Part shown: positions 4,360 to 63,297 of the stretch, one piece after another | Layout: the number at the start of each line of letters is the position of its first letter | Position numbering within the stretch: the stretch's first letter is position 1 | Position numbers and translations under genes: made by a program | Origin: an uncultured Bacilli bacterium | GTDB lineage: Bacteria > Bacillota_I > Bacilli_A > RF39 > UBA660 | DNA length: 64,000 nt | Direction of reading: 5' to 3' | Assembly: GCA_934087065.1 (NCBI GenBank) | Contig: CAKOIS010000002.1 | Location: 11,880-75,879 of the forward strand | The notes under the pieces: model-generated | What the model saw: only the letters and a program-made list of their open reading frames with translations | Told to the model about the DNA's origin: nothing | Database searches by the model: none

Positions 4360-4567
4360 TGATAACATTATCTTGTAATAGTGAGAGTAACAAAAATTCT
4401 CAAGTTTTAAAAAACAAAGGAGAGATACACATGAAAACAAAATACACTTTAAAACCTAGTATGGGGGGGGGTTATTTAACTAGCGTAAATAACTATAGTT
4501 TTCATGTGCAATTAAATGGATAGAATAATTCTACCCATTTTTTCGTGTGTAAGAAAAGAGGTAAGGT
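4360..4567 (+). promoter_or_regulatory. conserved leader, copy 1: palindrome gataacattatc, uORF (4431-4484) containing a G9 tract (4463-4471), and a hairpin plus T-run (about 4505-4535)
   Basis: About 80% nucleotide identity with the leaders at 23205-23405, 33855-34049 and 45105-45302. The G-tract length differs between copies. Confidence 0.6.
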
Positions 4568-4810
4568 ATGACAAATGAAGAATTAAAGAAAATTGTTGGA
4601 AGAAACGTAAAAAAGTATAGGCTTATATATAATGCGTACAACAAAGAAAAACTTACTCAGAAAGACTTAGCTGAAAAGATAGGTGCAAAGACACCTCTTA
4701 TAGGTGCTTTAGAAAGCGAGAACAACAACATGGGAATAAGTATATATAACTTATATATGATAAGTAAAGTACTAAATGTACCAATAGAAAAGTTTTTTGA
4801 GGAGGAATAA
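4568..4810 (+). CDS. XRE-family helix-turn-helix transcriptional regulator (80 aa)
   Basis: HTH_3-like segment LTQKDLAEKIGAKTPLIGALE. Lies between the conserved leader and paralog 1, and only in this copy. Confidence 0.55.
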   Translation: MTNEELKKIVGRNVKKYRLIYNAYNKEKLTQKDLAEKIGAKTPLIGALESENNNMGISIYNLYMISKVLNVPIEKFFEEE

Positions 4811-4815
4811 AGTAT

Positions 4816-7308
4816 ATGAAGAATAAAAAAGGAATGATATATGGAGTACTATTAATGACTTGTTTAGTAATAGGTTTATCTTATGGAGCATTTATATTTA
4901 GTACAGATAAATATAGAAGTAGTGAATTATTAATAAGTAAGTTAAACTATAGTATAGATATACAAGAAGACGGAAGTAATAAGTCTACAATTAATGGAAG
5001 TTCAGTAACAGTACCAGCTAGTACTAAAGTATATTTAAATATTACTTTAACAAGTGTAAATGAAATAGATAGTAAATATACTTTAGCATATAAAACTAGC
5101 ACAAACGCTAAAGTAGAGTACTCAGATAGAACACCATGGAACACACAAGGAGTAATAAAAGGAATAGACAGTAACACTTATTCAAAAAAGATAAGAGTAG
5201 TAATAGATAACACAAATATCTCAACACCATCTACAGTAAACTTTCAAGTATATGGTGGATACTCATTTAACTCATATGCAAATATAGAACTAACTGATGG
5301 ATATGTATCAGTAAGTGGACCATACACAGAAGTTGCAACAAACATAGGAAATAGACTAGTAGATATAATAGAAAGTGATACAAGTTGTTTAACAAGTAAT
5401 TCTAACACTTGCTTGTATGGTGGAGAGAACATTAAAAACTATGTACAATACCCAGAAGACAATGACAAAACAAAGAACTTATGGAGAATAATAGGAAGTT
5501 ATCAAATAGAAGATCAAACACTACCAAAACTAATAAGTCAAAGTACAAGTAGTACTAGTACTTCAACACTAACAACAGACTTAACAAGTTTCTATAACAC
5601 ATTAGAAGATAAAGAAGTATTAGTACAACAAACAAATAAATTTAATTGTTTTACTAATACTTGTGTAGAAAGCACTTACAACAATATTGGCTTACTAACA
5701 GACTATGAATATAATCAAATAGGTGGAGTAAACTCATACTTAGCAACTACAGAAAAATATTACATAAATAGTTCTAGCGGAATAAAAGAAGTAACATCAA
5801 GTGGGATAACAAACCCAAGTAATACAAGTGGACTAAAACCAACAATATACTTACAAACTGGAGTACAAGTAACAGGAAGTGGAACAGTGAGTGACCCATA
5901 CATCATAAGTCCAGCAAGTGATATAAATTTAGTTGCTTATACATTAAATGGACAAGCAACAGATAAAAATTATGCAGATTTACTTAAAACAAATGTAGTA
6001 GATAAAGTAACATGTAAAAACGGAACAACAGCAACATGGGACAATACAGATTTTTCAATAAAATTAAAGAATATACATACACCAGACTATTGTACAATTG
6101 ATTTTGGAGATGGATACAGTGTTAGTTTAACAGCAACAAATGGTACAGTAAGTCCATCAAATATAACTGTAGGATATAATGGAAGTGCAAGTTTTACTGT
6201 AACACCTAACAGTGGATATAAACTAGAACTTGAAACAAACACATGTGGCGGAACACTATCAGGAAGTACATATACAATAAGTAATGTAACAAGTGCAAAA
6301 AGTTGTAGTATAACATTCAAGTCTTCTACACAAACATTATATGCTAAACTGCTTGCTGATAAATCAACAGTATTAACAAGAACAGACTTTAGTAAAGTTT
6401 TAACAAATGACAATACAAACACATTATATACAGGAACAGAGAATGGAACAACAGTATATTATTTTGCAGGGAATGCAACAGATAATTGGGTAAAGTTTGG
6501 AAAGAATGCAACTAATCAAGACTTATACTGGAGAATAATAAGAACAAACTCAGATGGTGGAGTAAGACTACTATACCATGGAACAAGTACTACAGCAACA
6601 GATGCGGTTATAAACACAAGTACAGCATTTAATACAACATATAATAACCCAATGTATGTAGGATATATGTATGGAACAAGCGGTTCATTAGTAAATAATA
6701 GAACAAATACAAATAATAGTACAATAAAAGGAATAATAGATACATGGTATGAAAATAATCTAAAAACTAACTATACAAAATACTTAAGTACAACAGCAGT
6801 ATATTGCAATGATAGAAGTAACCCAGCAGGTGGATATAACACTGGAGGTACAACATTCTACTATGGTGGATATACACGATTAATAACAAATAAAACACCA
6901 ACATATGACTGTACAGACACTAACGATAAATTCACAGTAGACACAAGTACAGGAAACGGGAAACTAACATACCCAATAGCATTAATGACAGCAGACGAAG
7001 TAAGTTTTGCAGGTGGACTAGCGGGAACAAACGCACCAACATGGTATTATTATAATAGTGCAAAGGGTAGCTCAACAGGTGACACCAGGTGGTGGCTGTT
7101 GTCTCCTTACTATTGGAGTAGCGGCCACGCTTACGTGTTTCGCGTGTACGGTTCGTCCTACCCTGGCCGCTTGAACTACAACAACGTCAACTACACCGCT
7201 CTTGGTGTTCGTCCGGCAGTTTCTCTCAAATCTTGTATCAAGACAAGTGGAGGAGATGGCTCGGCAAACGCACCATACACAATAGAAGAAAGTACAAGTG
7301 GGTGCTAA
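4816..7308 (+). CDS. secreted/surface protein, paralog 1 (830 aa). N-terminal signal anchor and S/T-rich linker. The C-terminal half is homologous to paralogs 2-4 and ends in an adenine-depleted hypervariable domain (WWLLSP...GVRPAVSLKSC)
   Basis: RBS gaggagg. The C-terminal ~330 aa align with ORFs 23406, 34050 and 45303. Terminal CLec/DUF1566-like pattern (YW..S...AY.V.F.V.G....GVRP). Confidence 0.8.
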   Translation: MKNKKGMIYGVLLMTCLVIGLSYGAFIFSTDKYRSSELLISKLNYSIDIQEDGSNKSTINGSSVTVPASTKVYLNITLTSVNEIDSKYTLAYKTSTNAKVEYSDRTPWNTQGVIKGIDSNTYSKKIRVVIDNTNISTPSTVNFQVYGGYSFNSYANIELTDGYVSVSGPYTEVATNIGNRLVDIIESDTSCLTSNSNTCLYGGENIKNYVQYPEDNDKTKNLWRIIGSYQIEDQTLPKLISQSTSSTSTSTLTTDLTSFYNTLEDKEVLVQQTNKFNCFTNTCVESTYNNIGLLTDYEYNQIGGVNSYLATTEKYYINSSSGIKEVTSSGITNPSNTSGLKPTIYLQTGVQVTGSGTVSDPYIISPASDINLVAYTLNGQATDKNYADLLKTNVVDKVTCKNGTTATWDNTDFSIKLKNIHTPDYCTIDFGDGYSVSLTATNGTVSPSNITVGYNGSASFTVTPNSGYKLELETNTCGGTLSGSTYTISNVTSAKSCSITFKSSTQTLYAKLLADKSTVLTRTDFSKVLTNDNTNTLYTGTENGTTVYYFAGNATDNWVKFGKNATNQDLYWRIIRTNSDGGVRLLYHGTSTTATDAVINTSTAFNTTYNNPMYVGYMYGTSGSLVNNRTNTNNSTIKGIIDTWYENNLKTNYTKYLSTTAVYCNDRSNPAGGYNTGGTTFYYGGYTRLITNKTPTYDCTDTNDKFTVDTSTGNGKLTYPIALMTADEVSFAGGLAGTNAPTWYYYNSAKGSSTGDTRWWLLSPYYWSSGHAYVFRVYGSSYPGRLNYNNVNYTALGVRPAVSLKSCIKTSGGDGSANAPYTIEESTSGC
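7090..7227 (+). other. putative DGR variable region (VR) of paralog 1
   Basis: A-depleted, GC-rich stretch in an AT-rich gene. The codons that vary against paralogs 2-4 are NNC (tac, cac, cgc, aac, acc). Conserved scaffold codons lack A. A conserved 3' boundary (gtttctctcaaatcttgtgtcaagacaag) contains a small inverted repeat. Confidence 0.55.
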
Positions 7309-7492: not shown

Positions 7493-8845
7493 CTAAAACT
7501 CTACTGTTTCTACATTGCTTTGTATTTGATTATTTATTTGTTGTACTTGCTGTGTTACTTGTGGAGTAGGTTGCTGCTGTGGTGTTTCTTTTATACTGTG
7601 GGCTTTTTGTGCCATCTTTAGGTTTGCAACTAAGTTATCGTCTTTGTAAGCTGTCATATCATTTTCTAAGTCAACTATCTTTAGTATTTCTTCAAATGAT
7701 GTTTCTCCTTCAACAACTTTGTTTAACCCATCTTGTAATAGTGTAACAACTTCTCCAGTATAAACTAAATCTCTTAGAACGTGTTTAGGAGCATTATTAG
7801 TAATTGCGTCTTTTATTTTTTCATTCATTACTAGTACTTCTAGTATTGCAAGTCTTCCTCTATAACCATGGTTACATCTAGGACAGCCTTCTTTATTTGC
7901 AACATACATTTCATTTATATCTTTTCCTATAACTGTTTTAAATACTTGTTTTTCATATTCTGTAGTTTGTCTTTTAATCATACAGTTAGGACATAATTTT
8001 CTAGCAAGTCTTTGACTTATTATTCCTTCAAGTGAGCTACCAAGTAAGTATCTTTCTACATCCATATCAGTAAGTCTTTCAATAGTATTAAGTGAGTTAT
8101 TAGTGTGTAGTGTACTAAGAACTAAGTGTCCAGTAATTGAAGCACGTACGGCAATTCTAGCTGTTTCATCATCACGAATTTCTCCGATCATTATTATATT
8201 AGGGTCTTGTCTTAAAATACTTCTTAAAATAGTAGCAAATGTAAGACCAATTTCAGTTTGAGTTTGAACTTGGTTAATACCAGCAATATCCATTTCAACT
8301 GGGTCTTCAACTGTTATGATGTTAACTTCTTCAGTATTAAGCTTTTGAAGAATAGAGTACAAAGTAGTACTTTTACCAGTTCCAGTAGCACCAGTAACTA
8401 AGATAATTCCATTAGGTATTCTAATTAATTTATTAATCTTTTCCATCGCGTCTTTACTAAAGCCTAAGTTATCAAGTCCAGCTAAACTCATAGAGTAGTC
8501 TAGAATTCTTATAACTATTTTTTCTGCATTATTTGTAGGTAGTGTACTTACACGCAAATCAAGTAGTCTATCTCCAATTTTACTCTTAATCGCACCATCT
8601 TGAGGAAGACGCGTTTCCATTATATTCATACCGGCTATCATTTTGATACGACTTATCATATTTCTTTTATATTTACTAGGGACTATACTGTAATCACTTA
8701 ATATACCATCAATTCTAAAACGAATTTTCAAAGAGTCTTTAGATGGGTCAAAGTGAATATCACTTGCGCCCTTATTAACTGCGTCTATTATAATTTCATT
8801 TGCTATTTCAACAATAGGTAATTTTTCAAAATTAAATTCTTTCAT
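7493..8845 (-). CDS. pilB: type IV pilus assembly ATPase (PilB/GspE family)
   Basis: Walker A GATGTGKSTT. GspE-type Asp/His boxes. Tetracysteine C-x-x-C...C-x-x-C motif. 450 aa. Confidence 0.85.
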   Translation of the reverse strand: MKEFNFEKLPIVEIANEIIIDAVNKGASDIHFDPSKDSLKIRFRIDGILSDYSIVPSKYKRNMISRIKMIAGMNIMETRLPQDGAIKSKIGDRLLDLRVSTLPTNNAEKIVIRILDYSMSLAGLDNLGFSKDAMEKINKLIRIPNGIILVTGATGTGKSTTLYSILQKLNTEEVNIITVEDPVEMDIAGINQVQTQTEIGLTFATILRSILRQDPNIIMIGEIRDDETARIAVRASITGHLVLSTLHTNNSLNTIERLTDMDVERYLLGSSLEGIISQRLARKLCPNCMIKRQTTEYEKQVFKTVIGKDINEMYVANKEGCPRCNHGYRGRLAILEVLVMNEKIKDAITNNAPKHVLRDLVYTGEVVTLLQDGLNKVVEGETSFEEILKIVDLENDMTAYKDDNLVANLKMAQKAHSIKETPQQQPTPQVTQQVQQINNQIQSNVETVEF

Positions 8846-9091: not shown

Positions 9092-9454
9092 ATGAAAAAT
9101 AAAGGTTTTACTTTAGTTGAAGTAATTGCAGTTATTGCTTTAATTGCAGCTTTGGTTTTACTAGTAGTCCCAAAACTAGCAGACATGGATACGAAAAGCA
9201 AAGAAAAGATGTATAATGCAAAAGTGACGGAAATTTTATCAGGTGCTTATAAGTATGGAACAGATAATATTGATAACTTAACAAATGAATGCTTAGATGT
9301 AACAGTTGGTACTTTACTAAAACTAGGATATGTTAAATCAGATGATAATTCTGGTTTCTATGTGACTAATCCTAAAAATAATGAGTCAATGAATAACTTA
9401 ATTATATGTGTTAAATATGAAAATGGGAAAGTAGTAACTAATGTTAGTAATTGA
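9092..9454 (+). CDS. type IV prepilin-like protein (class III signal, KGFTLVEV)
   Basis: N-terminus MKNKGFTLVEVIAVIALIA has a G-F-T-L-x-E prepilin peptidase site followed by a hydrophobic helix. 120 aa. Confidence 0.75.
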   Translation: MKNKGFTLVEVIAVIALIAALVLLVVPKLADMDTKSKEKMYNAKVTEILSGAYKYGTDNIDNLTNECLDVTVGTLLKLGYVKSDDNSGFYVTNPKNNESMNNLIICVKYENGKVVTNVSN

Positions 9455-19696: not shown

Positions 19697-20194
19697 ATGA
19701 AAAAGAAAGGATTTACACTAATTGAGGTTATTGCAGTAATTGCGCTTGTATCACTTTTACTACTTTTGGTAGTGCCAAATATAACTGAAAGTTATAAGAA
19801 AAGTCAAAAGAAAATATTCTATGATAACGTACTAGGTATATATAACACTGCTACACAGTCATTCTTATTAGAAGATACTAAAGTTAATAACTTTTGTCAT
19901 TCTGGTACTAAATTAAAAGCTGACTTAGGAGAAGATGTAGAATATAATGTTATATTAGACGACTTTGGGCAAGTTACTAGTTTAGCTGTAAGTAATGGAA
20001 GATTTTACTATTCTAAATCTAATTCAAGTGGAGTAAGTAGGTCAGACATTTCTATAGACGACATCCAAGAAAGCAAAATTAATATTAATTGTGACGGGAC
20101 AATAAGTTATCAAAATAACTGTATAATAACTGATTCAAATAGGTCTTGTCAAATATACGGTTTCACATTTTTTAGAAAAAATGCTACGATTTAG
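19697..20194 (+). CDS. type IV prepilin-like protein
   Basis: N-terminus MKKKGFTLIEVIAVIALVSLLLL with G-F-T-L-I-E. 165 aa. Cys pair near the C-terminus. Confidence 0.7.
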   Translation: MKKKGFTLIEVIAVIALVSLLLLLVVPNITESYKKSQKKIFYDNVLGIYNTATQSFLLEDTKVNNFCHSGTKLKADLGEDVEYNVILDDFGQVTSLAVSNGRFYYSKSNSSGVSRSDISIDDIQESKININCDGTISYQNNCIITDSNRSCQIYGFTFFRKNATI

Positions 20195-23209: not shown

Positions 23210-23405
23210 AAAATGATAAGATTATCTTGTAATAAAGATAGGAAGTGAAGCACATGGAAGTTAATTCTTTAGTACAAAACAAAGTACAAATTGGGGGGGG
23301 GTTATTTAAATAGTATAAATAACTATAGTTTTTCATGTGCAATTATATGGATAGAATAAGTCTACCCATTTTTTCGTGTCTTAAAAAGAAAGGAGTGCAT
23401 TAAAT
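23205..23405 (+). promoter_or_regulatory. conserved leader, copy 2: palindrome gataagattatc, uORF from ATG 23255, G10 tract 23293-23302, hairpin plus T-run about 23346-23372
   Basis: Homologous to the leaders at 4360, 33855 and 45105. Confidence 0.6.
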
Positions 23406-24905
23406 ATGCAAAGGAAACAATTAACACTTGTAATAGTAAGCTTACTAGTAGTAGTACTAAGTGTATCACTTGCTTACTTTACAGCACAAATAATAGGAAA
23501 GGGAAAAGATGTAAGTGTAACAAGCGCAAACCTACAAATAGTATTTACAGATAGTGATGGAGCTTTAACAGAAACTGATATAGAACCTGGCTGGACTAAA
23601 ACTAAAACATTTACTATTAAAAATGATACTAAGATAGAATACAAATATAATATAGTAATAAAAGACTTATTAAATACTTTTGTAACTAATGGATACTTAA
23701 AGTACAAGATAACTAGTACAAATAATGGATATAATATGACTGAGTTTAAAGATATTCCAAAGTCTAGTGCACCTAAAGATACAATATTAGCTTATAGTGT
23801 AGTAATACCTAATGGAGTAACACAAAGTTATACAATTGAATTTAAGTATGCAAACGATGAAAGTGTAGACCAAAGTGATGATATGGGTAAGAAACTAAGT
23901 GGAACACTATTTATAACTGAGGAAACAGAAGATCCAAACAAAACACTATATAATCAATTACTTGTAGACAAATCAAAAGTATTAACAAGAACAGACTTTA
24001 GTAAAGTTTTAATAGATAATAATACAAACACATTATATACTTCTACTGAAGATAGTAAAACAGTATATTATTTTGCAGGGAATGCAACAGATAACTGGGT
24101 AAAGTTTGGAAAGAATGCAAGTAATCAAGACTTGTACTGGAGAATAATAAGAACAAACTCAGATGGTAGTGTAAGACTTCTTTACCACGGAACAAGTACT
24201 ACAGCAACAGATGCATATATTGGTGAATCAGCATTTAATAATAGTAGTTATACTAATATAGCATATGTAAGTTATATGTACGGAAGTACAGGAAGTATAG
24301 CAAATGCTAGAACTAACCAAAAAAACTCTAGTACAATAAAAGACAAAATAGATAACTGGTATAAAATCAACTTAGAAGCAAAAGGTTATACAAAATACTT
24401 AAGTACAACAGCAGTATATTGTAATGATAGAACATATGCAGTATCTGGAGATACATACTTTGGAGCATACACAAGACTAATAACAAATAAAACACCAAGT
24501 TATGACTGTGCAACAACAGAAGACAAATTCACAGTAGACACAAGTACAGGTAACGGAAAACTAACATATCCAATAGCATTAATGACAGCAGACGAAGTAA
24601 GTTTTGCAGGTGGACGATATGGTACAAATGCACCAACATGGTATTATTATAATAGTGCAAATGGTAGTTCTACAGAATCAAATGCTTGGTGGTTGTTGTC
24701 TTCTCGCAATTGGAATGGCGGCGACGCTATTGTGTTCTTCGTGTATGGTTCGTCCGAACAACCTGGCAATTTGAGCAACAGTAGGGTTGACGGCACTTAC
24801 GGTGTGCGTCCAGCCTTATCACTAAAATCTTGTGTAAAATATGCAAGTGGAGATGGCTCAGCAAGTGACCCATACACAATAAAAGAAACTACAAATGGAT
24901 GCTAA
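23406..24905 (+). CDS. secreted/surface protein, paralog 2 (499 aa) with C-terminal A-depleted hypervariable domain
   Basis: N-terminal signal anchor MQRKQLTLVIVSLLVVVLSVSLA. First ~170 aa nearly identical to paralogs 3 and 4. C-terminus WWLLSS...GVRPALSLKSC. Confidence 0.85.
   Translation: MQRKQLTLVIVSLLVVVLSVSLAYFTAQIIGKGKDVSVTSANLQIVFTDSDGALTETDIEPGWTKTKTFTIKNDTKIEYKYNIVIKDLLNTFVTNGYLKYKITSTNNGYNMTEFKDIPKSSAPKDTILAYSVVIPNGVTQSYTIEFKYANDESVDQSDDMGKKLSGTLFITEETEDPNKTLYNQLLVDKSKVLTRTDFSKVLIDNNTNTLYTSTEDSKTVYYFAGNATDNWVKFGKNASNQDLYWRIIRTNSDGSVRLLYHGTSTTATDAYIGESAFNNSSYTNIAYVSYMYGSTGSIANARTNQKNSSTIKDKIDNWYKINLEAKGYTKYLSTTAVYCNDRTYAVSGDTYFGAYTRLITNKTPSYDCATTEDKFTVDTSTGNGKLTYPIALMTADEVSFAGGRYGTNAPTWYYYNSANGSSTESNAWWLLSSRNWNGGDAIVFFVYGSSEQPGNLSNSRVDGTYGVRPALSLKSCVKYASGDGSASDPYTIKETTNGC
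24687..24824 (+). other. putative DGR variable region (VR) of paralog 2
   Basis: A-depleted. Variable NNC/NNT codons (cgc, aat, ggc, gac, att, ttc, agc, aac, agt, gac, ggc, act, tac). One extra codon relative to copies 1 and 3. Confidence 0.5.
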
Positions 24906-31217: not shown

Positions 31218-33011
31218 ATGAAAAAGAATAAAAAGAACGTTCATAAAGTTTCATTATTTACTAATTTGTCCTATGTTCTTAAACAAATGGCAACTGAATT
31301 ATATAAAACAGCTAAGTTTGCTGGGTTAGGCTTATTTAAAGTTTTTGATTTTATAATGACTAACTTAATTACAATAGTAACATATATTTTCTATGCGATA
31401 TATTATATTAGTATGTATATTGGAAAATTTACTTATACTTTAGGTAAATTCATGTATTATAAAGTGTTTAAACCTATTGGTTTTGAAGTATATTATTTAT
31501 TTAAAGCAATGTACTTGGGTGCTTACAGGGTAGGTAAAATATTATTTTATGAAATTCCTTTATTTATATTTAACTCATTTAGTGACTTTTTTGACTTGAT
31601 AAGAAAAAAATTAAAACTATTAAAAGAAAGACTAATGTATTTCTTTAAACATACACCTAATACAGTTAAAAATTACTTCTTAGATAGATTTAACAATATT
31701 AGTATAGTAAAACACTATAGGAATAAGAAAGAAAGAGAATTAGAAGTTCTATTAATAGATAAGTTTGGTAAAGATGCTGAAAGGACCAGCAAAAAACAGA
31801 CTTATAAATACTTAGTAAGAAATGAAGAAGGTAAACTAATTACTGGATATTTTGCAGCTTTATCTAGGTTAGATGTGCATTCATACTTACTTGATGAAGG
31901 ATATGAAGTATACGAGATTAAAACAAACTGGTGGATAAATTTTGCACATGGAGAAAGTAAGTACTTAGAAAAGCAAATGAAAGCAAAAGACTTAATTTTC
32001 TGGTTAGCCCAGTTAAGTACTTATTTAAAAGCAGGAATACCACTTACTGATTCAGTTAAAATACTTGCTGAACAAGATAAAAGAAAAAAATATAAAAAGA
32101 TATATGACTCAGTTATATATGAGTTATCTATGGGTGAAGCATTTAGTGATGCTTTAAGAAAACAAGGAAGTGTGTTTCCACCTTTACTAATTAATATGAT
32201 TAAAGGTGCAGAACTAATAGGAGACTTAGAAAACACACTTGACGATATGAGTAAATACTATGAAGAAAGAGAATCAACTAGAAAACAATTAATAGGTTCA
32301 CTTGTATACCCAGCTGTAATACTAGTGTTCTCATTAGTTGTAGTAATATTTATGGTAGTATATATAATACCTCAATTTGAAGGAATATACTCAAGCTTAG
32401 GTGCAGAGTTAAACCCAATAGTATTATTCTTACTTAAATTTAGTGCATTCTTAAAAACTAATTATATGTTACTAATTGCAGGATTTATATTAGTAGTAGT
32501 ACTATTAACATTTATGTATAAAAAAGTTAAAGCTTTTAGAACACTAGTACAATATATAGCAATGCATCTACCATTAGTAGGGAAACTAATTATATATAAT
32601 GAAATGCACTTATTTGCAAAAACATTTAGTGTACTTAATAAAAATAATGTACTTTTAACTGATAGTATAGATATACTTAGTAAAATAACTAGTAATGAAT
32701 TTTATAAAATGATAATGTATGACACAATTAGTAACTTATTAAGAGGAGACAAAATAAGTTTATCATTTAAAGACAACTGGGCTGTTCCAACACTAGCTTA
32801 TTACATGATATCAACTGGTGAAGCAACAGGTGAATTAAGTGAAATGTTAGAAAAAGTAAGCGTTTATTATGAACAAGAACAAAGAAACTTGGGTAACTCA
32901 TTAAAAACGCTAATTGAACCAATACTTATGATTATATTAGCTGTTATAGTTGGTGGAATAATGATTTCTATAATCGTGCCAATGTATGATATAACAAAGA
33001 ACATCTTGTAG
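31218..33011 (+). CDS. pilC: type IV pilus inner-membrane platform protein (PilC/GspF family) with a ~190-aa N-terminal extension
   Basis: Two GspF-type domains. The canonical PilC N-terminus (TYKYLVRNEEGKLITGYFAALS) begins around aa 196. Strong RBS agaggtgaagg at 31218. Confidence 0.8.
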   Translation: MKKNKKNVHKVSLFTNLSYVLKQMATELYKTAKFAGLGLFKVFDFIMTNLITIVTYIFYAIYYISMYIGKFTYTLGKFMYYKVFKPIGFEVYYLFKAMYLGAYRVGKILFYEIPLFIFNSFSDFFDLIRKKLKLLKERLMYFFKHTPNTVKNYFLDRFNNISIVKHYRNKKERELEVLLIDKFGKDAERTSKKQTYKYLVRNEEGKLITGYFAALSRLDVHSYLLDEGYEVYEIKTNWWINFAHGESKYLEKQMKAKDLIFWLAQLSTYLKAGIPLTDSVKILAEQDKRKKYKKIYDSVIYELSMGEAFSDALRKQGSVFPPLLINMIKGAELIGDLENTLDDMSKYYEERESTRKQLIGSLVYPAVILVFSLVVVIFMVVYIIPQFEGIYSSLGAELNPIVLFLLKFSAFLKTNYMLLIAGFILVVVLLTFMYKKVKAFRTLVQYIAMHLPLVGKLIIYNEMHLFAKTFSVLNKNNVLLTDSIDILSKITSNEFYKMIMYDTISNLLRGDKISLSFKDNWAVPTLAYYMISTGEATGELSEMLEKVSVYYEQEQRNLGNSLKTLIEPILMIILAVIVGGIMISIIVPMYDITKNIL

Positions 33012-33022
33012 GGGGAAACAAA

Positions 33023-33760
33023 ATGATTTACGTATTTATATTTATAACTGGTGTATGCCTAGGAAGTTTTTATGCTTGTATAGGCTACAGAATTCCAAAC
33101 AAAATTAGTACAGTAAAACCTAGTAGTTTTTGTCCAAACTGTAAAAAAAGTTTAAAGTGGTATATGAATATACCACTTCTAAGCTATATATTTTTAAAAG
33201 GAAAATGCGCTTACTGTAAAGAAAAGATAAGTATAACTTACTTTCTAATAGAACTAACTACAGGAATACTTTTCTTAATAAGCTACATGATATTTGGATT
33301 AAACTATCAATTAATAGTAGTATTAACTCTAATAAGTGCCTTAATGGTTAGTTTAGTAACAGACTTAAAATATTACTACATTTCAGATAGAGTAATAGTA
33401 GTTTCTTCTATTTTAGTAGCGTTTACTTACTTAAAATTCTTAGGAGTTAACTCATTTTTAAGCCATATACTATCAGGCGCTTTGATGTTTATATTAATGT
33501 ATTTACTAAAAATAATAACTACAAAAATATTTAAAAAAGAGTCACTAGGTGACGGGGACATCAAACTAATGATACTTATTGGTTTAACACTAGGAGTGTT
33601 TAACTCGTTTATTTCTTTATTTATATCAAGCGTAACAGCGCTTATATATACAATACTATTTATAAAGAAGAAAGATGCACTTATCCCATTTGGACCTTTC
33701 CTTTTAATAGGTGCGATAGTTACATACATTCTAGTTTTTTATCAAATAACTATAATATAG
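33023..33760 (+). CDS. pilD: prepilin peptidase (A24 family)
   Basis: N-terminal CPNC...CAYC zinc-binding module. Catalytic-region motif GDGDIKLM. Polytopic membrane protein. Confidence 0.85.
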   Translation: MIYVFIFITGVCLGSFYACIGYRIPNKISTVKPSSFCPNCKKSLKWYMNIPLLSYIFLKGKCAYCKEKISITYFLIELTTGILFLISYMIFGLNYQLIVVLTLISALMVSLVTDLKYYYISDRVIVVSSILVAFTYLKFLGVNSFLSHILSGALMFILMYLLKIITTKIFKKESLGDGDIKLMILIGLTLGVFNSFISLFISSVTALIYTILFIKKKDALIPFGPFLLIGAIVTYILVFYQITII

Positions 33761-33854: not shown

Positions 33855-34049
33855 TTTTTTGATAAGATTATCTTGTAATAAAGATAGGAAGTGAAGTACA
33901 TGAAAATTAACTCTTTAGTACAAAATAAAGTACAAAATGGGGGGGGGTTATTTAACTAGCATAAATAACTATAGTTTTTCATGTGCAATTAAATGGATAG
34001 AATAAGTCTATCCATTTTTCGTGTCTTAAAAAGAAAGGAGAGCATTAAT
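33855..34049 (+). promoter_or_regulatory. conserved leader, copy 3: palindrome gataagattatc, uORF from ATG 33900, G9 tract 33939-33947, perfect 11-bp hairpin plus T-run about 33991-34026
   Basis: Homologous to the other three leaders. The hairpin aaatggataga-ataag-tctatccattt is followed by tttcgtg. Confidence 0.6.
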
Positions 34050-35531
34050 ATGCAACGAAAACAATTAACACTTGTAATAGTAAGCTTACTTGTAGTAGTA
34101 CTAAGTGTATCACTAGCTTACTTTACAGCACAAATAATAGGAAAGGGGAAAACTGTAGACGTTAGTAGTGCTAACTTACAAATAGTATTTACAGATAGTG
34201 ATGGAGCTTTAACAGAAACTGATATAGAACCAGGCTGGAGTGCAACTAAAACATTTACTATTAAAAATGATACTAAGACAGAATACAAATATAATATAGT
34301 AATAAAAGACTTATTAAATACTTTTGTAACAGAAGGATATTTACAATACAAAATAACTAGTACAAACGATGGATATAATATGACTGAGTTTAAAGATATT
34401 CCAAAGTCTAGTATAGCAACAGATACAATACTAGCTTATAGTGTAGTAATACCTAATGGAGTAACACAAAGTTACACAATTGAATTTAAGTATGCAAACG
34501 ATGAAAGTGTAGACCAAAGTGATGATATGGGTAAGAAACTAAGTGGAACATTATTTATAACTGAAGGAACAGAAGATCCAAATAAAACACTATATAATCA
34601 ATTACTTGTAGACAAATCAACAGTATTAACAAGAACAGACTTTAGTAAAGTTTTAACAGATAATAATACAAACACATTATATACTTCTACTGAAGACAGT
34701 AAAACAGTATATTATTTTGCAGGGAATGCAACAGATAACTGGGTAAAGTTTGGAAAGAATGAAAGTAATCAAGATTTATACTGGAGAATAATAAGAACAA
34801 ACTCAGATGGTGGAGTAAGACTACTATATCATGGCACAAGTACTACAGCAACAGACGCATATATAGGAATATCAAAATTTAATACAGAATATAATGATCC
34901 AATGTATGTAGGATATATGTATGGAACAAGCGGATCACTAGTAAACAACAGAACAAATATAAGTGATAGTACAATAAAAACAACACTAGATAATTGGTAT
35001 AAAGATAATTTGAATACAAATTATGGAAAATACTTAAGTACAACAGCAGTATATTGTAACGATAGAAGTACATCAAATGATACATCCTTTGGAGCATTCA
35101 CAAGACTAAAAACAAATAAAACACCAAGTTATGACTGTGCAGCAACAGAAGACAAATTCACAGTAGATAATAGTACAGGCAACGGTAAACTAACATACCC
35201 AATAGCCTTAATGACAGCAGACGAAGTAAGTTTTGCAGGTGGACTATGGGCAACAAATGCTTCTACTTGGTATTATTATAATAGTGCAAACGGAAGCTCA
35301 ACAGGCTCAAACTGGTGGTGGTTGTTGTCTCCTCGCCTTTGGATTGGCGGCTACGCTAGCGTGTTCAACGTGAACGGTTCGTCCGGCCCTGGCCGCTTGT
35401 ACTTCGACGACGTCAACAACTCTTACGGTGTGCGTCCGTCAGTTTCTCTCAAATCTTGTGTCAAGACAAGTGGTGGAGATGGCTCAGCAAGCACACCATA
35501 CACAATAGAAGAAACTTCAAGTGGATGCTAA
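34050..35531 (+). CDS. secreted/surface protein, paralog 3 (493 aa; start moved from 33993 to the conserved MQRKQ ATG)
   Basis: RBS aaaggagag plus ATG 34050 is the position conserved in paralogs 2 and 4. C-terminus WWLLSP...GVRPSVSLKSC. Confidence 0.85.
   Translation: MQRKQLTLVIVSLLVVVLSVSLAYFTAQIIGKGKTVDVSSANLQIVFTDSDGALTETDIEPGWSATKTFTIKNDTKTEYKYNIVIKDLLNTFVTEGYLQYKITSTNDGYNMTEFKDIPKSSIATDTILAYSVVIPNGVTQSYTIEFKYANDESVDQSDDMGKKLSGTLFITEGTEDPNKTLYNQLLVDKSTVLTRTDFSKVLTDNNTNTLYTSTEDSKTVYYFAGNATDNWVKFGKNESNQDLYWRIIRTNSDGGVRLLYHGTSTTATDAYIGISKFNTEYNDPMYVGYMYGTSGSLVNNRTNISDSTIKTTLDNWYKDNLNTNYGKYLSTTAVYCNDRSTSNDTSFGAFTRLKTNKTPSYDCAATEDKFTVDNSTGNGKLTYPIALMTADEVSFAGGLWATNASTWYYYNSANGSSTGSNWWWLLSPRLWIGGYASVFNVNGSSGPGRLYFDDVNNSYGVRPSVSLKSCVKTSGGDGSASTPYTIEETSSGC
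35313..35450 (+). other. putative DGR variable region (VR) of paralog 3
   Basis: 17 A in about 138 nt within an AT-rich genome. All but one A lie in NNC codons (att, tac, agc, aac, aac, tac, gac, gac, aac, aac, tac). Scaffold codons (tgg tgg ttg ttg tct cct ... ggt tcg tcc ... cct ggc cgc ttg ... ggt gtg cgt ccg) are A-free. Confidence 0.55.
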
Positions 35532-45104: not shown

Positions 45105-45302
45105 TTTTTTTGATATCATTAATTATGTAATAAAGATAGGAAGTGAAGTACATGAAAATTAACTCTTTAGTACAAAATAAAGTACAATATGGGGGGGGTT
45201 ATTTAAATAGTATAAATAACTATAGTTTTTCATGTGCAATTAAATGGATAGAATAAGTCTATCCATTTTTTCGTGTCTTAAAAAGAAAGGAGAGCATTAA
45301 AT
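45105..45302 (+). promoter_or_regulatory. conserved leader, copy 4: uORF from ATG 45152, G8 tract 45191-45198, perfect hairpin plus T-run about 45239-45272
   Basis: Homologous to the other leaders. With 8 G the uORF stays in frame through the left arm of the hairpin and stops at the TAA in its loop. Confidence 0.6.
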
Positions 45303-46931
45303 ATGCAACGAAAACAATTAACACTTGTAATAGTAAGCTTACTTGTAGTAGTACTAACTGTATCACTAGCTTACTTTACCGTACAAATAATAGGAAAGGG
45401 GAAATCTGTAGACGTAACAAGTGCTAACTTACAAATAGTATTCACAGATAGTGATGGAGCTTTAACAGAAACTGATATAGAACCTGGCTGGACTAAAACT
45501 AAAACATTTACTATTAAAAATGATACTAAGATAGAATACAAATATAATATAGTAATAAAAGACTTATTAAATACTTTTGTAACTAATGGATACTTAAAGT
45601 ACAAGATAACTAGTACAAATAATGGATATAATATGACTGAGTTTAAAGATATTCCAAAGTCTAGTGCACCTAAAGATACAATATTAGCTTATAGTGTAGT
45701 AATACCTAATGGAGTAACACAAAGTTATACAATTGAATTTAAGTATGCAAACGATGAAAGTGTAGACCAAAGTGATGATATGGGTAAGAAACTAAGTGGA
45801 ACTCTTTATATAGAGAAAGGGACTTTACCAACGTTAAGTGAGAAACTTTTTGCTGATAACCCAACAATACAAACAAGAAGTTCATTTGATGCAGTATTTA
45901 CTGAAACAAACACAGGAACTTTATATAAAGCAACAGAAAGTATAGCAGGTAGTCCTGCAAAAGATGTGTATTACTTTGCAGGAGATGCAAAGAATAACTG
46001 GGTTAATTTTGGAAAATATCAAACAGATTATGTTGTCTATAGAGGTTATTCTGAAACAGGCAGTAAATACATAGATTATTTGACAATGGATGCATGTACT
46101 AGTGCCTCAAATTATAATATTAATTGTACTGAACAAATATATTGGAATAAGGGTAATGATATATACTGGAGAATAGTAAGAACAAACTACGATGGAAGTG
46201 TAAAACTTCTATATGCGGGAAATAGCCCTGATACAACAAGTGGATACATAGGAACAAGTGCATTCAATAGCACAAATAATGATTCAATGTATGTAGGATA
46301 TAAATATGGTACAAGTGGGACTCTAGCAAATAACAGATTAAATACAAATGATAGTACAATAAAAACTTTTATAGATAACTGGTATAGTAATAACTTAACA
46401 AGTTATACAAAATATATAAGTACAGAAGCAGTATATTGTAATGACAGAAAAGCACTAAGCTATAGTATAAGTAGTTCTTTTGATTACTATGTACAAACAA
46501 GACTAGGTGCAGGAAATCCAACATATGATTGTGAAGATAGTAGTGATGCATTTTCAGGAAGTAATAGTGAAGCAAAATTAACACACCCAATAGGACTAAT
46601 GACAGCAGATGAAATAACATATGCAGGTGGTAAAGATACTACAGGCTTAACAAGTCCATATGCATGGTATTATCTAAACAGTGCTGGGGAAAGTATAACC
46701 GGAACACAATGGTGGTGGTCCTTGTCACCTCGACTCTGGAATGGTGTCATTTCGTACGTTTGGTTCGTTTTTGGTTCTTCTATTCCGGGTGCCCTTTTGA
46801 GCACCGCCGATGTGAACTTTGAGAATGGTGTTCGCCCCGCCATTTCTCTCAAATCTTGTGTCAAGACAAGTGGTGGAGATGGTTCAGCTAGTAACCCATA
46901 CACAATACAAGAAACAGCAAGTGGTTGTTAA
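45303..46931 (+). CDS. secreted/surface protein, paralog 4 (542 aa), with a more divergent C-terminal half and an A-depleted hypervariable terminal domain
   Basis: The N-terminal 170 aa are nearly identical to paralogs 2 and 3. The C-terminal domain WWWSLSP...GVRPAISLKSC is related but more diverged. Confidence 0.85.
   Translation: MQRKQLTLVIVSLLVVVLTVSLAYFTVQIIGKGKSVDVTSANLQIVFTDSDGALTETDIEPGWTKTKTFTIKNDTKIEYKYNIVIKDLLNTFVTNGYLKYKITSTNNGYNMTEFKDIPKSSAPKDTILAYSVVIPNGVTQSYTIEFKYANDESVDQSDDMGKKLSGTLYIEKGTLPTLSEKLFADNPTIQTRSSFDAVFTETNTGTLYKATESIAGSPAKDVYYFAGDAKNNWVNFGKYQTDYVVYRGYSETGSKYIDYLTMDACTSASNYNINCTEQIYWNKGNDIYWRIVRTNYDGSVKLLYAGNSPDTTSGYIGTSAFNSTNNDSMYVGYKYGTSGTLANNRLNTNDSTIKTFIDNWYSNNLTSYTKYISTEAVYCNDRKALSYSISSSFDYYVQTRLGAGNPTYDCEDSSDAFSGSNSEAKLTHPIGLMTADEITYAGGKDTTGLTSPYAWYYLNSAGESITGTQWWWSLSPRLWNGVISYVWFVFGSSIPGALLSTADVNFENGVRPAISLKSCVKTSGGDGSASNPYTIQETASGC
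46710..46850 (+). other. putative DGR-type variable region (VR) of paralog 4, a divergent class
   Basis: About 12% A. The conserved 3' boundary tttctctcaaatcttgtgtcaagacaagtggtggagatgg is shared with copies 1 and 3. Confidence 0.45.
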
Positions 46932-62247: not shown

Positions 62248-62412
62248 ATGAAAAAAGGGTTTGTATCAATGGCTACTGTGTATACATTTTTAATAGTATT
62301 CTTATTAATATTATCGTCTATATTATCTAAATATGTAATGAGAAATAGACTAATTAATAGTCTTAATGAAACAGTAAAAAATGAACTTAATGAGAGGTAT
62401 AACAGTGAATAA
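62248..62412 (+). CDS. small pseudopilin-like membrane protein (54 aa; not in the supplied ORF track)
   Basis: RBS ataggagtgag plus ATG. N-terminus MKKGFVSMATVYTFLIVFLL. First gene of a pseudopilin cluster. Confidence 0.3.
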   Translation: MKKGFVSMATVYTFLIVFLLILSSILSKYVMRNRLINSLNETVKNELNERYNSE

Positions 62413-62857
62413 GAATGGTTTTGTATTTATAGAAACAATAATAGTAATTGTCTTACTTAGTGTTGGTATTGCTAGTATGTACTCTTTAATGACTAATATA
62501 ACAACTGATATAAAATCAAGAAAATACTTTGATAATATAAGTGATTTATATAAAACTAATATTATAAGAGATAATGTAAGTAAAAATTTAACTGGTACAA
62601 CATACTTAGAGATTACAAAAGATAACTGTACTTCATACATGAGTAGTACATGTTATAGTTTACTTACTGACTTAGAAGTAGAAAGAGTAGTAGTTAACTT
62701 TGCAAGTTTAGATAACATAATAAATAGTGATACAACCATCCCTAACAGTATGAATGAATACCTAAAAACAATTAATACATATAAAACAAACAAATACATA
62801 ATAGTAAACTACAAATACAATAACAAAAACTATTATGCTTCCCTAGAGGTGAAATAA
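62381..62857 (+). CDS. prepilin-type pseudopilin (likely true start GTG 62405: VNKNGFVFIETIIVIVLL)
   Basis: G-F-V-F-I-E-T class III signal. RBS gagagg before the GTG. Confidence 0.6.
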   Translation: MNLMRGITVNKNGFVFIETIIVIVLLSVGIASMYSLMTNITTDIKSRKYFDNISDLYKTNIIRDNVSKNLTGTTYLEITKDNCTSYMSSTCYSLLTDLEVERVVVNFASLDNIINSDTTIPNSMNEYLKTINTYKTNKYIIVNYKYNNKNYYASLEVK

Positions 62858-63297
62858 TGAAAAAAAATGGATTTACCTTAGTTGAACTAACTATTAGTAT
62901 TGCTCTATTATCAGTAGTAATGGTCTTCTTACTAAACTTTCTAACACTTGTTAAAAAAGAAGATGTAGGAATAGAAGAAACTACAAGCATGGAAATAGAT
63001 AAAAGTGTAATTTCTAAAACTATTAATAGTGATATCTTAAAAGAAAACTATATAAGTACTCTGTCTTGTACAGATGTGTTATGTAGTGTAACCTTAAAAA
63101 GTGGGGCTAAAAGAACTATTACTATAGACGGTAATATCGTTAAATACACCGATACTACAAACAATAAAGTACTCATGTCTAGAAAGACTAACTTATCATA
63201 CACTTTAAAAAGTACTAGCTTAACCACTATTGATAAAATAACACTTGTCACAGAAAACTCAGAATACAATATAGAAATAATATCTAGTAAAATCTAG
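62857..63297 (+). CDS. prepilin-type pseudopilin
   Basis: N-terminus MKKNGFTLVELTISIALLSVV. Start overlaps the previous stop (TAATG). Confidence 0.65.
   Translation: MKKNGFTLVELTISIALLSVVMVFLLNFLTLVKKEDVGIEETTSMEIDKSVISKTINSDILKENYISTLSCTDVLCSVTLKSGAKRTITIDGNIVKYTDTTNNKVLMSRKTNLSYTLKSTSLTTIDKITLVTENSEYNIEIISSKI

Follow-up and report, generated by a model that had tools for sequence, protein, structure and literature searches.

The subject of this analysis is a 138-nt block at the 3' end of the second of four paralogous genes (their blocks are called copies 1 to 4) in a 64,000-nucleotide stretch of DNA from an uncultured Bacilli bacterium (the window). We consider it likely that the copy 2 block is the variable region (VR) of a remote target gene, i.e. 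one outside the retroelement cassette, of a chromosomal diversity-generating retroelement (DGR) family, and that it is now a static fossil. The hosts of this family are small-genome, AT-rich gut Bacilli. An earlier note on the window had suggested that copy 2, whose downstream boundary is altered, might be a less efficient or decayed homing target, and that a downstream inverted repeat would be implicated in homing if copy 2 alone had stopped diversifying, with copies 1, 3 and 4 continuing to vary.

The copy 2 block has 50.7% GC and 18.1% A, compared with 30.3% GC and 43.8% A in the remaining gene and 28.8% GC in the window. Among 63,862 sliding 138-nt segments of this strand, A<=25 together with GC>=70 was reached solely by segments overlapping the four paralog blocks. 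The location of the block, its scaffold strings and the altered string downstream were as the earlier note had described them. Its list of NNC/NNT codons was incomplete, omitting gaa (24756-24758), caa (24759-24761) and agg, none of which is of this type, and one aat. The block is one codon longer than copy 3 and the template repeat (TR; both 45 codons), as the note had it, but not longer than copies 1 and 4, which also have 46 codons, with the extra codons at other places.

TRs were found in related cassettes. A motif scan of GTDB-derived loci identified a locus, L087, in which a DGR-type reverse transcriptase (RT; IGNMSSQ...YMDD) lies downstream of a paralog, a TR and an Avd-like open reading frame (ORF). 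With this RT as query, 1,747 relatives were obtained, and the same cassette was present in each of four loci of RT relatives: target, leader, TR, spacer, a 127-133-aa MutS_I-like ORF, bAvd and RT. The cassette RT carries the IGxxxSQ and YMDD motifs and matches PF00078; confirmation of the Avd was weak. In loci L115 and L117, the non-adenine bases of the TR are the scaffold of copies 1-3 (class A; core AACGTGTTCAACGTGAACGGTTCGTCCAACCCTGGCAACTTG, cassette spacer motif AGAGAAACAAGTTTATTTCCTA). The TRs of L087 and L107 belong to class B. TR variants at third codon positions exist, with AAT in L115 and AAC in L117.

Compared with the class A TR of L115, which comes from a related metagenome contig and not from the same genome, copy 2 was changed at 17 of 36 adenines and at 9 of 95 other positions (odds ratio 8.5, p=5.8e-6), with two small gaps totalling 3 nt. 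The targets next to the cassettes (cis-targets) of L115 and L117 differed from their own TRs at 17/36 and 15/36 adenines but at only 0/95 and 1/95 non-adenines, without indels (p 9.2e-12 and 3.9e-9). Copy 3 showed 20/36 adenine and 2/95 non-adenine changes and no indels (p 6e-12), and copy 1 showed 17/36 and 4/95 with a 3-nt insertion (p 3e-8). A bias to TR adenine positions was present in all four copies (p 3e-4 to 6e-12). The concentration of differences at adenines by which DGR VRs are recognized was therefore found in copy 2 with the L115 TR, which supports the DGR-type identity of the block suggested in the earlier note. Since copy 2 carries this adenine signature, it is taken to descend from a TR-templated copy.

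The same comparison indicated decay. In line with the decayed target considered in the earlier note, copy 2 has diverged from the TR scaffold to a greater extent than copy 3 or copy 1, with nine non-adenine mismatches and a 3-nt insertion versus two, and four plus an insertion, respectively. Eight of the nine mismatches are toward A or T, and four of them are third-position C-to-T changes in former AAC codons. Targets that are not adjacent to a cassette have been assigned by the presence of A-to-N changes alone, apart from minor exceptions, and by TR length (Wu et al. 2018; PMC5758913). Copy 2 does not conform to this rule because of its nine mismatches and its insertion, compared with 0-1 mismatches in the cis-targets and two in copy 3. 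The insertion, gaa caa in place of a single AAC, occurs in copy 2 alone among 117 aligned family members and in all 5 other fetched contigs that carry copy 2. Neither this insertion nor the agg codon can derive from AAY codons. Across 14 class A VRs, non-adenine mismatches had a density of 0.059 per site over the initial 113 nt and of 0.179 over the final 18 nt. This roughly 3-fold rise suggests that the copied stretch ends near GGTGTGCGTCC. By analogy with BPP-1, transfer would stop near GGTGTGCGTCC and the segment after it would age as ordinary sequence, like the initiation of mutagenic homing (IMH) element. The segment 24810-24828 would then match the IMH position of studied DGRs (PMC12875486), and the stretch 24690-24811 is probably what was replaced by a cDNA copy.

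Variation between strains was assessed with syntenic contigs from other samples, fetched via exact neighbouring proteins, whose flanks were 99.1-100% identical to the window and carried single-nucleotide polymorphisms. Across these contigs, no VR differences were found for any of the four copies. Identical VRs were present for copy 1 in L002 and L003, for copy 2 in L001/L010, L011, L012 and L013, for copy 3 in L019, L020 and L022, and for copy 4 in L019. The copy 2 VR showed 0 differences in 5 other contigs from 4 samples, so that the pattern of a variable VR between invariant flanks was not observed. As a positive control, the cis-target of the cassette with RT P0135 differed between L107 and L110 at 28 VR positions, all of them TR adenine sites, and at only 6 positions elsewhere in 9 kb. 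The equal invariance of all four VRs contradicts the idea that copy 2 alone is frozen, and it is the very outcome that the earlier note had named as a refutation. L021, a 96.8% identical strain, carries another allele across the whole C-terminal 816 nt of copy 3, and the difference is not confined to the VR. Other strain differences in the paralogs are short patches in the N-terminal and middle regions (coordinates in Table 1), which suggests that the paralogs exchange sequence by mosaic recombination or gene conversion. Contigs of metagenomes tend to break within the paralog genes, in the repeated mid-gene region and not at the VR.

Taken with established DGR biology, these results would fit the following course of events. 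A cassette of target, leader, TR, spacer, MutS-like ORF, Avd and RT would make TR RNA, and the RT would copy it with random misincorporation opposite adenines. The cDNA would replace the homologous stretch of the target up to the GC-rich GGTGTGCGTCC, and about 17 AAY codons would thereby be rewritten, on the face with which a C-type-lectin fold binds its ligand. Copy 2 would then have escaped rewriting for a long time, gaining the gaa caa insertion and up to nine non-adenine substitutions. As neither RT nor TR occurs in the window and its 10-kb flanks, and as the closest species representative contains only decayed cassette remnants, the simplest interpretation is that this lineage lacks the class A element or keeps it in an inactive form. 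The four VRs are then most simply read as fossils of different ages, copy 3 being the youngest, followed by 1, 2 and 4.

The downstream boundary of copy 2 does differ from that of the other copies, as the earlier note had pointed out, but the inverted repeat cttgtgtcaagacaag is present as such only in copies 3 and 4, and copy 1, with cttgtatcaagacaag, is already one base off. The repeat has the form CTTGT-N6-ACAAG, a 5-bp stem with 2 GC pairs and a loop of GTCAAG in copies 3 and 4 and ATCAAG in copy 1. According to Guo et al. (2011; PMC3240598), a DGR target stem-loop combines a GC-rich stem of 7-10 bp with a 4-nt loop of the consensus GRNA and lies downstream of the VR at a distance of 4-34 bp. 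The start of the repeat, 6 nt past the last TR-homologous base, falls into this range and agrees with the position of the BPP-1 stem-loop; a role as homing signal is also favored by the stronger decay of copy 2 relative to copies 1 and 3 and by the presence of the repeat at the L115 cis-target. However, the repeat lacks the published stem and loop, and it is not conserved at the family's functional targets. The cis-targets of L117 (IKYSTG), L107 (VQWKSG) and L087 (ALWTSG), with 1, 0 and 5 non-adenine mismatches to their own TRs, respectively, have no such repeat. VR-only variation was seen in IKYSTG-type proteins, such as P0111 and P0108 with 5 differences before the VR and 17 inside. Copy 4 combines an intact repeat with the most decayed VR, and the strains show no difference in behavior between the copies. 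Folded as DNA, the repeat reaches -2.8 to -3.6 kcal/mol (copy 3: -3.6 kcal/mol, z -0.36). The copy 2 variant folds at -1.9 kcal/mol (z -0.96), with 37 of 200 shuffles folding at least equally well. As this is still a small hairpin, the copy 2 string is not really more degenerate as a structure. None of eight 3' flanks with or without the repeat folded better than shuffles (z -0.96 to +1.19), and the L107 flank formed essentially no hairpin (-0.2 kcal/mol). Even in BPP-1, the stem-loop raises efficiency but is not strictly required (PMC12875486). The proposal that homing needs the repeat and that its loss stopped copy 2 alone is thus very improbable, and we regard the repeat as a by-product of the S-C-V-K-T-S codons.

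The sequence downstream of copy 2 is an old, widespread allele block of the family, not a private lesion. The copy 2 boundary is common and one of several family alleles; an 'AL' 3' end was linked to VKY[AS]xG codons in 15 cases. The block was also found in L118 and L119, whose VRs are near-pristine with 2-3 non-adenine mismatches in the first 113 nt, and in L028. The UBA11492 counterpart of the copy 2 locus (L068) has the canonical end, and the copy-3 locus in another genome (L119) has the variant end. Because boundary alleles differ at the same locus between genomes, they must move between loci.

Several observations weigh against a simple fossil and leave room for other explanations. VRs on the AL-VKY[AS]xG block have a mean of 1.75 forbidden (adenine-unreachable) residues, versus 0.53 and 0.47 on the VKTSGG and IKYSTG blocks (Mann-Whitney p=0.004 and 0.002), and indels occur in 5/16 of these VRs versus 2/17 and 4/19, in a protein sample that is phylogenetically non-independent and was selected for resemblance to copy 2. 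The allele block, or IMH-like segment, may therefore influence target efficiency to a modest degree. In its stronger form, this would mean that the variant at the 3' end of the TR homology (ccagccttatcacta for ccggcaNtttctctc) lowers homing without abolishing it, so that its VRs are rewritten less and age more. The linkage of 'AL' to VKY[AS]xG, the 9-15 non-adenine mismatches of copy 2, L028 and L032 on this block, and the requirement for the IMH in BPP-1 (PMC12875486) point in this direction. However, the VRs of L118 and L119 were recently written despite the block, and TLYSTG-type VRs with a canonical 3' end also average 1.52 forbidden residues, which makes the explanation doubtful. Other points against the fossil concern activity. 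A cognate TR with AAT for AAC at some codons would erase up to four of the nine decay mismatches. Consensus assemblies mask minority variants, and low-level diversification within a sample would escape; the compared strains are very close (0-0.9% divergence), so that 'static' spans a short time only. Moreover, the genome portion seen is 64 kb plus about 20 kb, and an RT and TR may lie elsewhere. Copy 2 might accordingly be a still active remote target of such a TR and RT that share its length and AAT codons, with diversification being rare or confined to a minority. Chromosomal DGRs with targets over 100 kb away from the RT have been documented (PMC5758913), and TR third-position variants exist, as do unseen parts of the genome beyond the roughly 84 kb examined. 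Yet gaa, caa and agg are not derivable from AAY codons, 0/117 aligned family proteins share the insertion, and the VR is identical in all contigs compared, which break in the mid-gene repeats and not at the VR. The near-pristine copy 3 is static too, and the class A TR core occurs in no GTDB species representative. We consider activity of copy 2 quite improbable.

Recombination offers another route to the same picture. Remote paralogs may never have been direct targets; only the cassette-adjacent target, followed by a strong GC hairpin after its stop codon, would be rewritten, and recombination would spread its VRs, which then age. The absence of this hairpin from the window, the patchy tracts of strain differences, the replacement of a whole C-terminal allele at the L021 copy-3 locus and the boundary alleles that differ at the same locus across genomes (L068, L119) are in line with this. 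The hairpin lies about 110 nt past the VR, however, beyond the reported 4-34 bp, and may act as a terminator or belong to the leader of the DGR RNA. Other DGRs are well known to home in trans to remote targets, and a transfer of VRs by recombination found no direct support. This route is unlikely. A more elaborate version, which we regard as distinctly unlikely, is a two-tier system in which only a hairpin-marked 'master' target is rewritten and the remote paralogs form an archive that is filled by recombination, frozen, and switched on and off by poly-G tracts, the 3' block of copy 2 being a natural IMH variant of an older archive lineage. Finally, the block could be a hypervariable loop produced by ordinary mutation, selection and gene conversion. 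The window contains no RT or TR, and recombination patches do occur in the paralogs, but the strong bias to TR adenines in all copies and the conservation of GC-rich synonymous sites across species in a 29% GC genome speak against this, and TRs of exactly this scaffold adjoin DGR RTs. The TR match effectively refutes this explanation, and its probability is negligible. An inactive VR of a remote target, written from a class A TR and since then aged to an intermediate degree, remains our preferred reading of copy 2.

The window is ordinary chromosome, with genes for Dxs, type IV pilus/competence-like proteins, PPDK, DnaB/DnaI, MurT/GatD, PolA, topoisomerase subunits, AsnRS, HrcA-DnaK-DnaJ, PolC and Lon. 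Interspersed with the paralogs are several small prepilin-type (N_methyl) genes as well as genes for PilB-like and PilC-like proteins and prepilin peptidase. Neither an RT nor a TR was found in the window or in the 10-kb flanks on either side, and blastn (word size 7, four VR queries) returned the four copies alone, with no fifth, adenine-rich copy in the window. Two TR candidates, at 12889 and 52436, were chance matches inside PPDK and upstream of PolC. For a candidate fifth paralog, P0079 on the same 123.7-kb contig, no record was available. An intrinsic-terminator scan around the paralog 2 gene gave a sole match, inside the VR, that was also due to chance. A guessed sequence of the class A TR core had 0 matches in GTDB species representatives, and this result is informative because the guess later proved exactly right. 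In IMG/VR, there were 0 matches for the cassette spacer motif and 0 for a generic VR scaffold, whose pattern began with TGGTGG, which has no counterpart in the TRs.

The closest GTDB genome is the metagenome-assembled genome 'Bacillota bacterium UBA11492', which must represent a different species, given a nucleotide identity of 88-93%. It contains two decayed cassettes. In L036, the GC hairpin is half-deleted, the TR and spacer motif are intact, MSL, Avd and RT are missing, and RmuC follows; in L049, hairpin and leader are kept without a TR. In a further locus, L054, the TR is followed directly by pgk. The decayed UBA11492 cassettes and the absence of the TR core from GTDB representatives fit a loss of the element in parts of the clade. 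A class B DGR with RT P0135 occurs in two samples in which this strain is also present, but coverage in ERZ4560700 (27.7x vs 133.8x) argued against its placement in the same genome.

In the complete cassettes, the ORF between TR spacer and bAvd is a weak match to MutS domain I (MutS-like, MSL). The equivalent reading frame of L087 is interrupted. DGRs containing MSL correspond to architecture D of Wu et al. (2018; PMC5758913). The GC hairpin CCGTCCGAAAACCCTTTCGGACGG after the stop codon of the cis-target consists of a 10-11 bp stem closed by the 4-nt loop ACCC and folds at -11.9 kcal/mol (z -5.9). This hairpin is present in the cassettes L087, L098, L107-111, L115 and L117 and in the remnant L049, half-deleted in L036, absent from L054, and was not found in the window or its paralogs. 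It reads CCGTCCGAAA-ACCC-TTTCGGACGG in L115 and GCCTGTGAAA-ACCC-TTTCACAGGC in L087. Since these arms differ and yet pair, the stem has compensatory changes. Terminator, RNA leader element and target signal are possible roles.

Table 1. Coordinates of the features discussed. Positions refer to the window unless a locus is named.
Feature	Position	Strand	Remarks
VR-like block of copy 2	24687-24824	+	46 codons, 3' end of 499-aa ORF; opens with tggtggttgttgtct at 24687, closes with cta at 24824
TR homology of copy 2	from 24690 on	+	class A TR: L115 2015-2155, L117 1665-1805
VR body of copy 2	24690-24811	+	ends with GC-rich ggtgtgcgtcc; six of the non-adenine mismatches to TR: tct, att, tat, aat, agg, gtt
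Scaffold string ggttcgtcc	24747-24755		copy 2
gaa caa (Glu-Gln)	24756-24761	+	single AAC codon in TR; private 3-nt insertion, A at third codon positions
Scaffold string ggtgtgcgtcc	24801-24811		copy 2
Variant 3' end of TR homology, onset of divergence	24810-24828	+	copy 2: ccagccttatcactaaaat; copies 1 and 3: ccg.ca.tttctctcaaat
Downstream string of copy 2	24829-24847	+	cttgtgtaaaatatgcaag; codes for part of S-C-V-K-Y-A-S
Paralog genes 1 to 4	4816-7308, 23406-24905, 33993-35531, 45303-46931		align with one another through VR region
Paralog 2 gene	23406-24905	+	499 aa; N-terminal hydrophobic anchor, beta-sandwich domain, ~320-aa C-terminal module ending in VR-bearing C-type-lectin fold
VR of copy 1	7090-7227	+	46 codons; changes counted against TR of L117
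VR of copy 3	35316-35450	+	45 codons, TR length; best kept copy
VR of copy 4	46713-46850	+	other scaffold class (WWSLSP..VW..), nearest class B TRs; 25 non-adenine mismatches and gaps; intact cttgtgtcaagacaag at 46855-46870
Strain-variable patches, paralog 1	4844-5610, 6432-6512, 6675-6720		
Strain-variable patches, paralog 3	34015-34279		
G8-G9 homopolymer, paralog 1	4463-4471		
G8-G9 homopolymer, paralog 2	23293-23301	+	G9
G8-G9 homopolymer, paralog 3	33939-33947		
G8-G9 homopolymer, paralog 4	45191-45198		
Prepilin-type, PilB-like, PilC-like and prepilin peptidase genes	9092-9454, 19697-20194, 62381-63297; 7493-8845; 31218-33760		
MSL ORF	L115 2467-2868, L117 2112-2513, L107 5285-5671, L112 4290-4673		
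GC hairpin of cis-targets	L115 1822-1845, L117 1456-1479, L107 ~4702-4725, L087 ~1381-1404, L049 1369-1392		
Decayed cassettes of UBA11492	L036 1495-2180, L049 1350-1660		

The VR of copy 2 sits in a C-type-lectin fold at the C-terminus of the protein, in keeping with the C-terminal C-type-lectin or Ig folds known for DGR targets. A first AlphaFold2 model from a shallow alignment (pLDDT <50 for the C-terminal domain) was discarded, and the prediction was rerun with a diverse alignment. A sequence search of the PDB gave nothing relevant, and no NCBIfam match was obtained for the paralogs. Copy 2 matched Pfam DUF6273 (PF19789) with 22.0 bits (E=1.6e-4), under the gathering threshold of 23.5 bits; PF19789 was matched at E<=0.01 in 18/29 relatives (best 2.1e-7), and precomputed PF19789 matches exist on many relatives. 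The family is large, with more than 7,600 close relatives, and its C-terminal module forms 4,742 clusters at the 50% identity level. Among 117 close homologues, the flanks are near-invariant, and about 17 fixed positions are hypervariable, with residues that are almost solely NNY-coded and mostly reachable from AAY, AGC or ACT codons. Contigs from human gut metagenomes, of the Hadza and others, encode the exact copy 2 protein. Further relatives bear the labels Clostridium sp. CAG:628, uncultured Tenericutes or uncultured Bacilli.

A near-identical VR, WWWLLSPYNWDGR-ARVFNVYGSSNPGYLDRNIVDGTYGVRP, one codon under TR length, is common to about 20 clusters at 90% identity on many contigs, a few of them with a single-residue difference (P0003, P0005-P0016, P0018-P0021, P0023, P0025 and P0036, all relatives of paralog 2). 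This adds a further VR that is widespread, frozen and marked by an indel. Each paralog is preceded by the G8-G9 homopolymer, which lies about 110 nt upstream in a conserved leader of about 180 nt and falls within a tiny ORF. Near-identical strains differ in the length of this tract (paralog 1, G9 vs G10; paralog 2, G9 vs G8; paralog 4, G8 vs G9). The poly-G tract is a candidate slipped-strand phase-variation switch, or the differences may be homopolymer assembly errors.

Among known systems, the Treponema denticola TvpA family and the Legionella DGR (Wu et al. 2018; PMC5758913) are similar in that paralogous surface-protein genes are scattered in the chromosome, the proteins end in a C-type-lectin fold whose last ~45 codons equal the TR except at adenines, and the related cassettes have the target-TR-MSL-Avd-RT layout. 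Unlike those targets, copy 2 has nine non-adenine mismatches and a length difference, and is static in populations, and a search of the window and its 10-kb flanks revealed no TR or RT around it for at least 30 kb to either side (20 kb downstream). The (GC)14/IMH/stem-loop arrangement of BPP-1 (PMC3240598; PMC12875486) is mirrored by the GC-rich ggtgtgcgtcc at the VR 3' end, by the next segment being nearly but not fully identical between TR and VR, and by an inverted repeat a few bases downstream. In contrast to BPP-1, the repeat of this family has a 5-bp AT-rich stem, a 6-nt loop and shuffle-level energy, and active targets of the family itself do not conserve it. The DGR-diversified DUF6273 phage receptor-binding proteins (Tentaclins, PMC10743442; Faecalibacterium prophages, PMC11792537) are similar in their Pfam family, which is matched weakly here, and in having a C-type-lectin-like, VR-bearing domain. 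Here, however, the paralogs are chromosomal genes amid housekeeping genes, not phage tail proteins, neither the VR scaffold nor the cassette spacer motif has a match in IMG/VR, and copy 2 stays below the Pfam cut-off.

The mechanism and components described here are already known from other DGRs, and a tempting cis-element hypothesis, found to be unsupported, is removed. More generally, a VR-like scaffold that is poor in adenine and remote from any retroelement is not necessarily an active target, and the non-adenine mismatches between it and the TR of relatives can serve to date it. With its huge set of lectin-fold surface proteins, its complete and decayed MSL-type cassettes and its fossil VRs of graded age, this family may be of use for studies of DGR loss and target decay.

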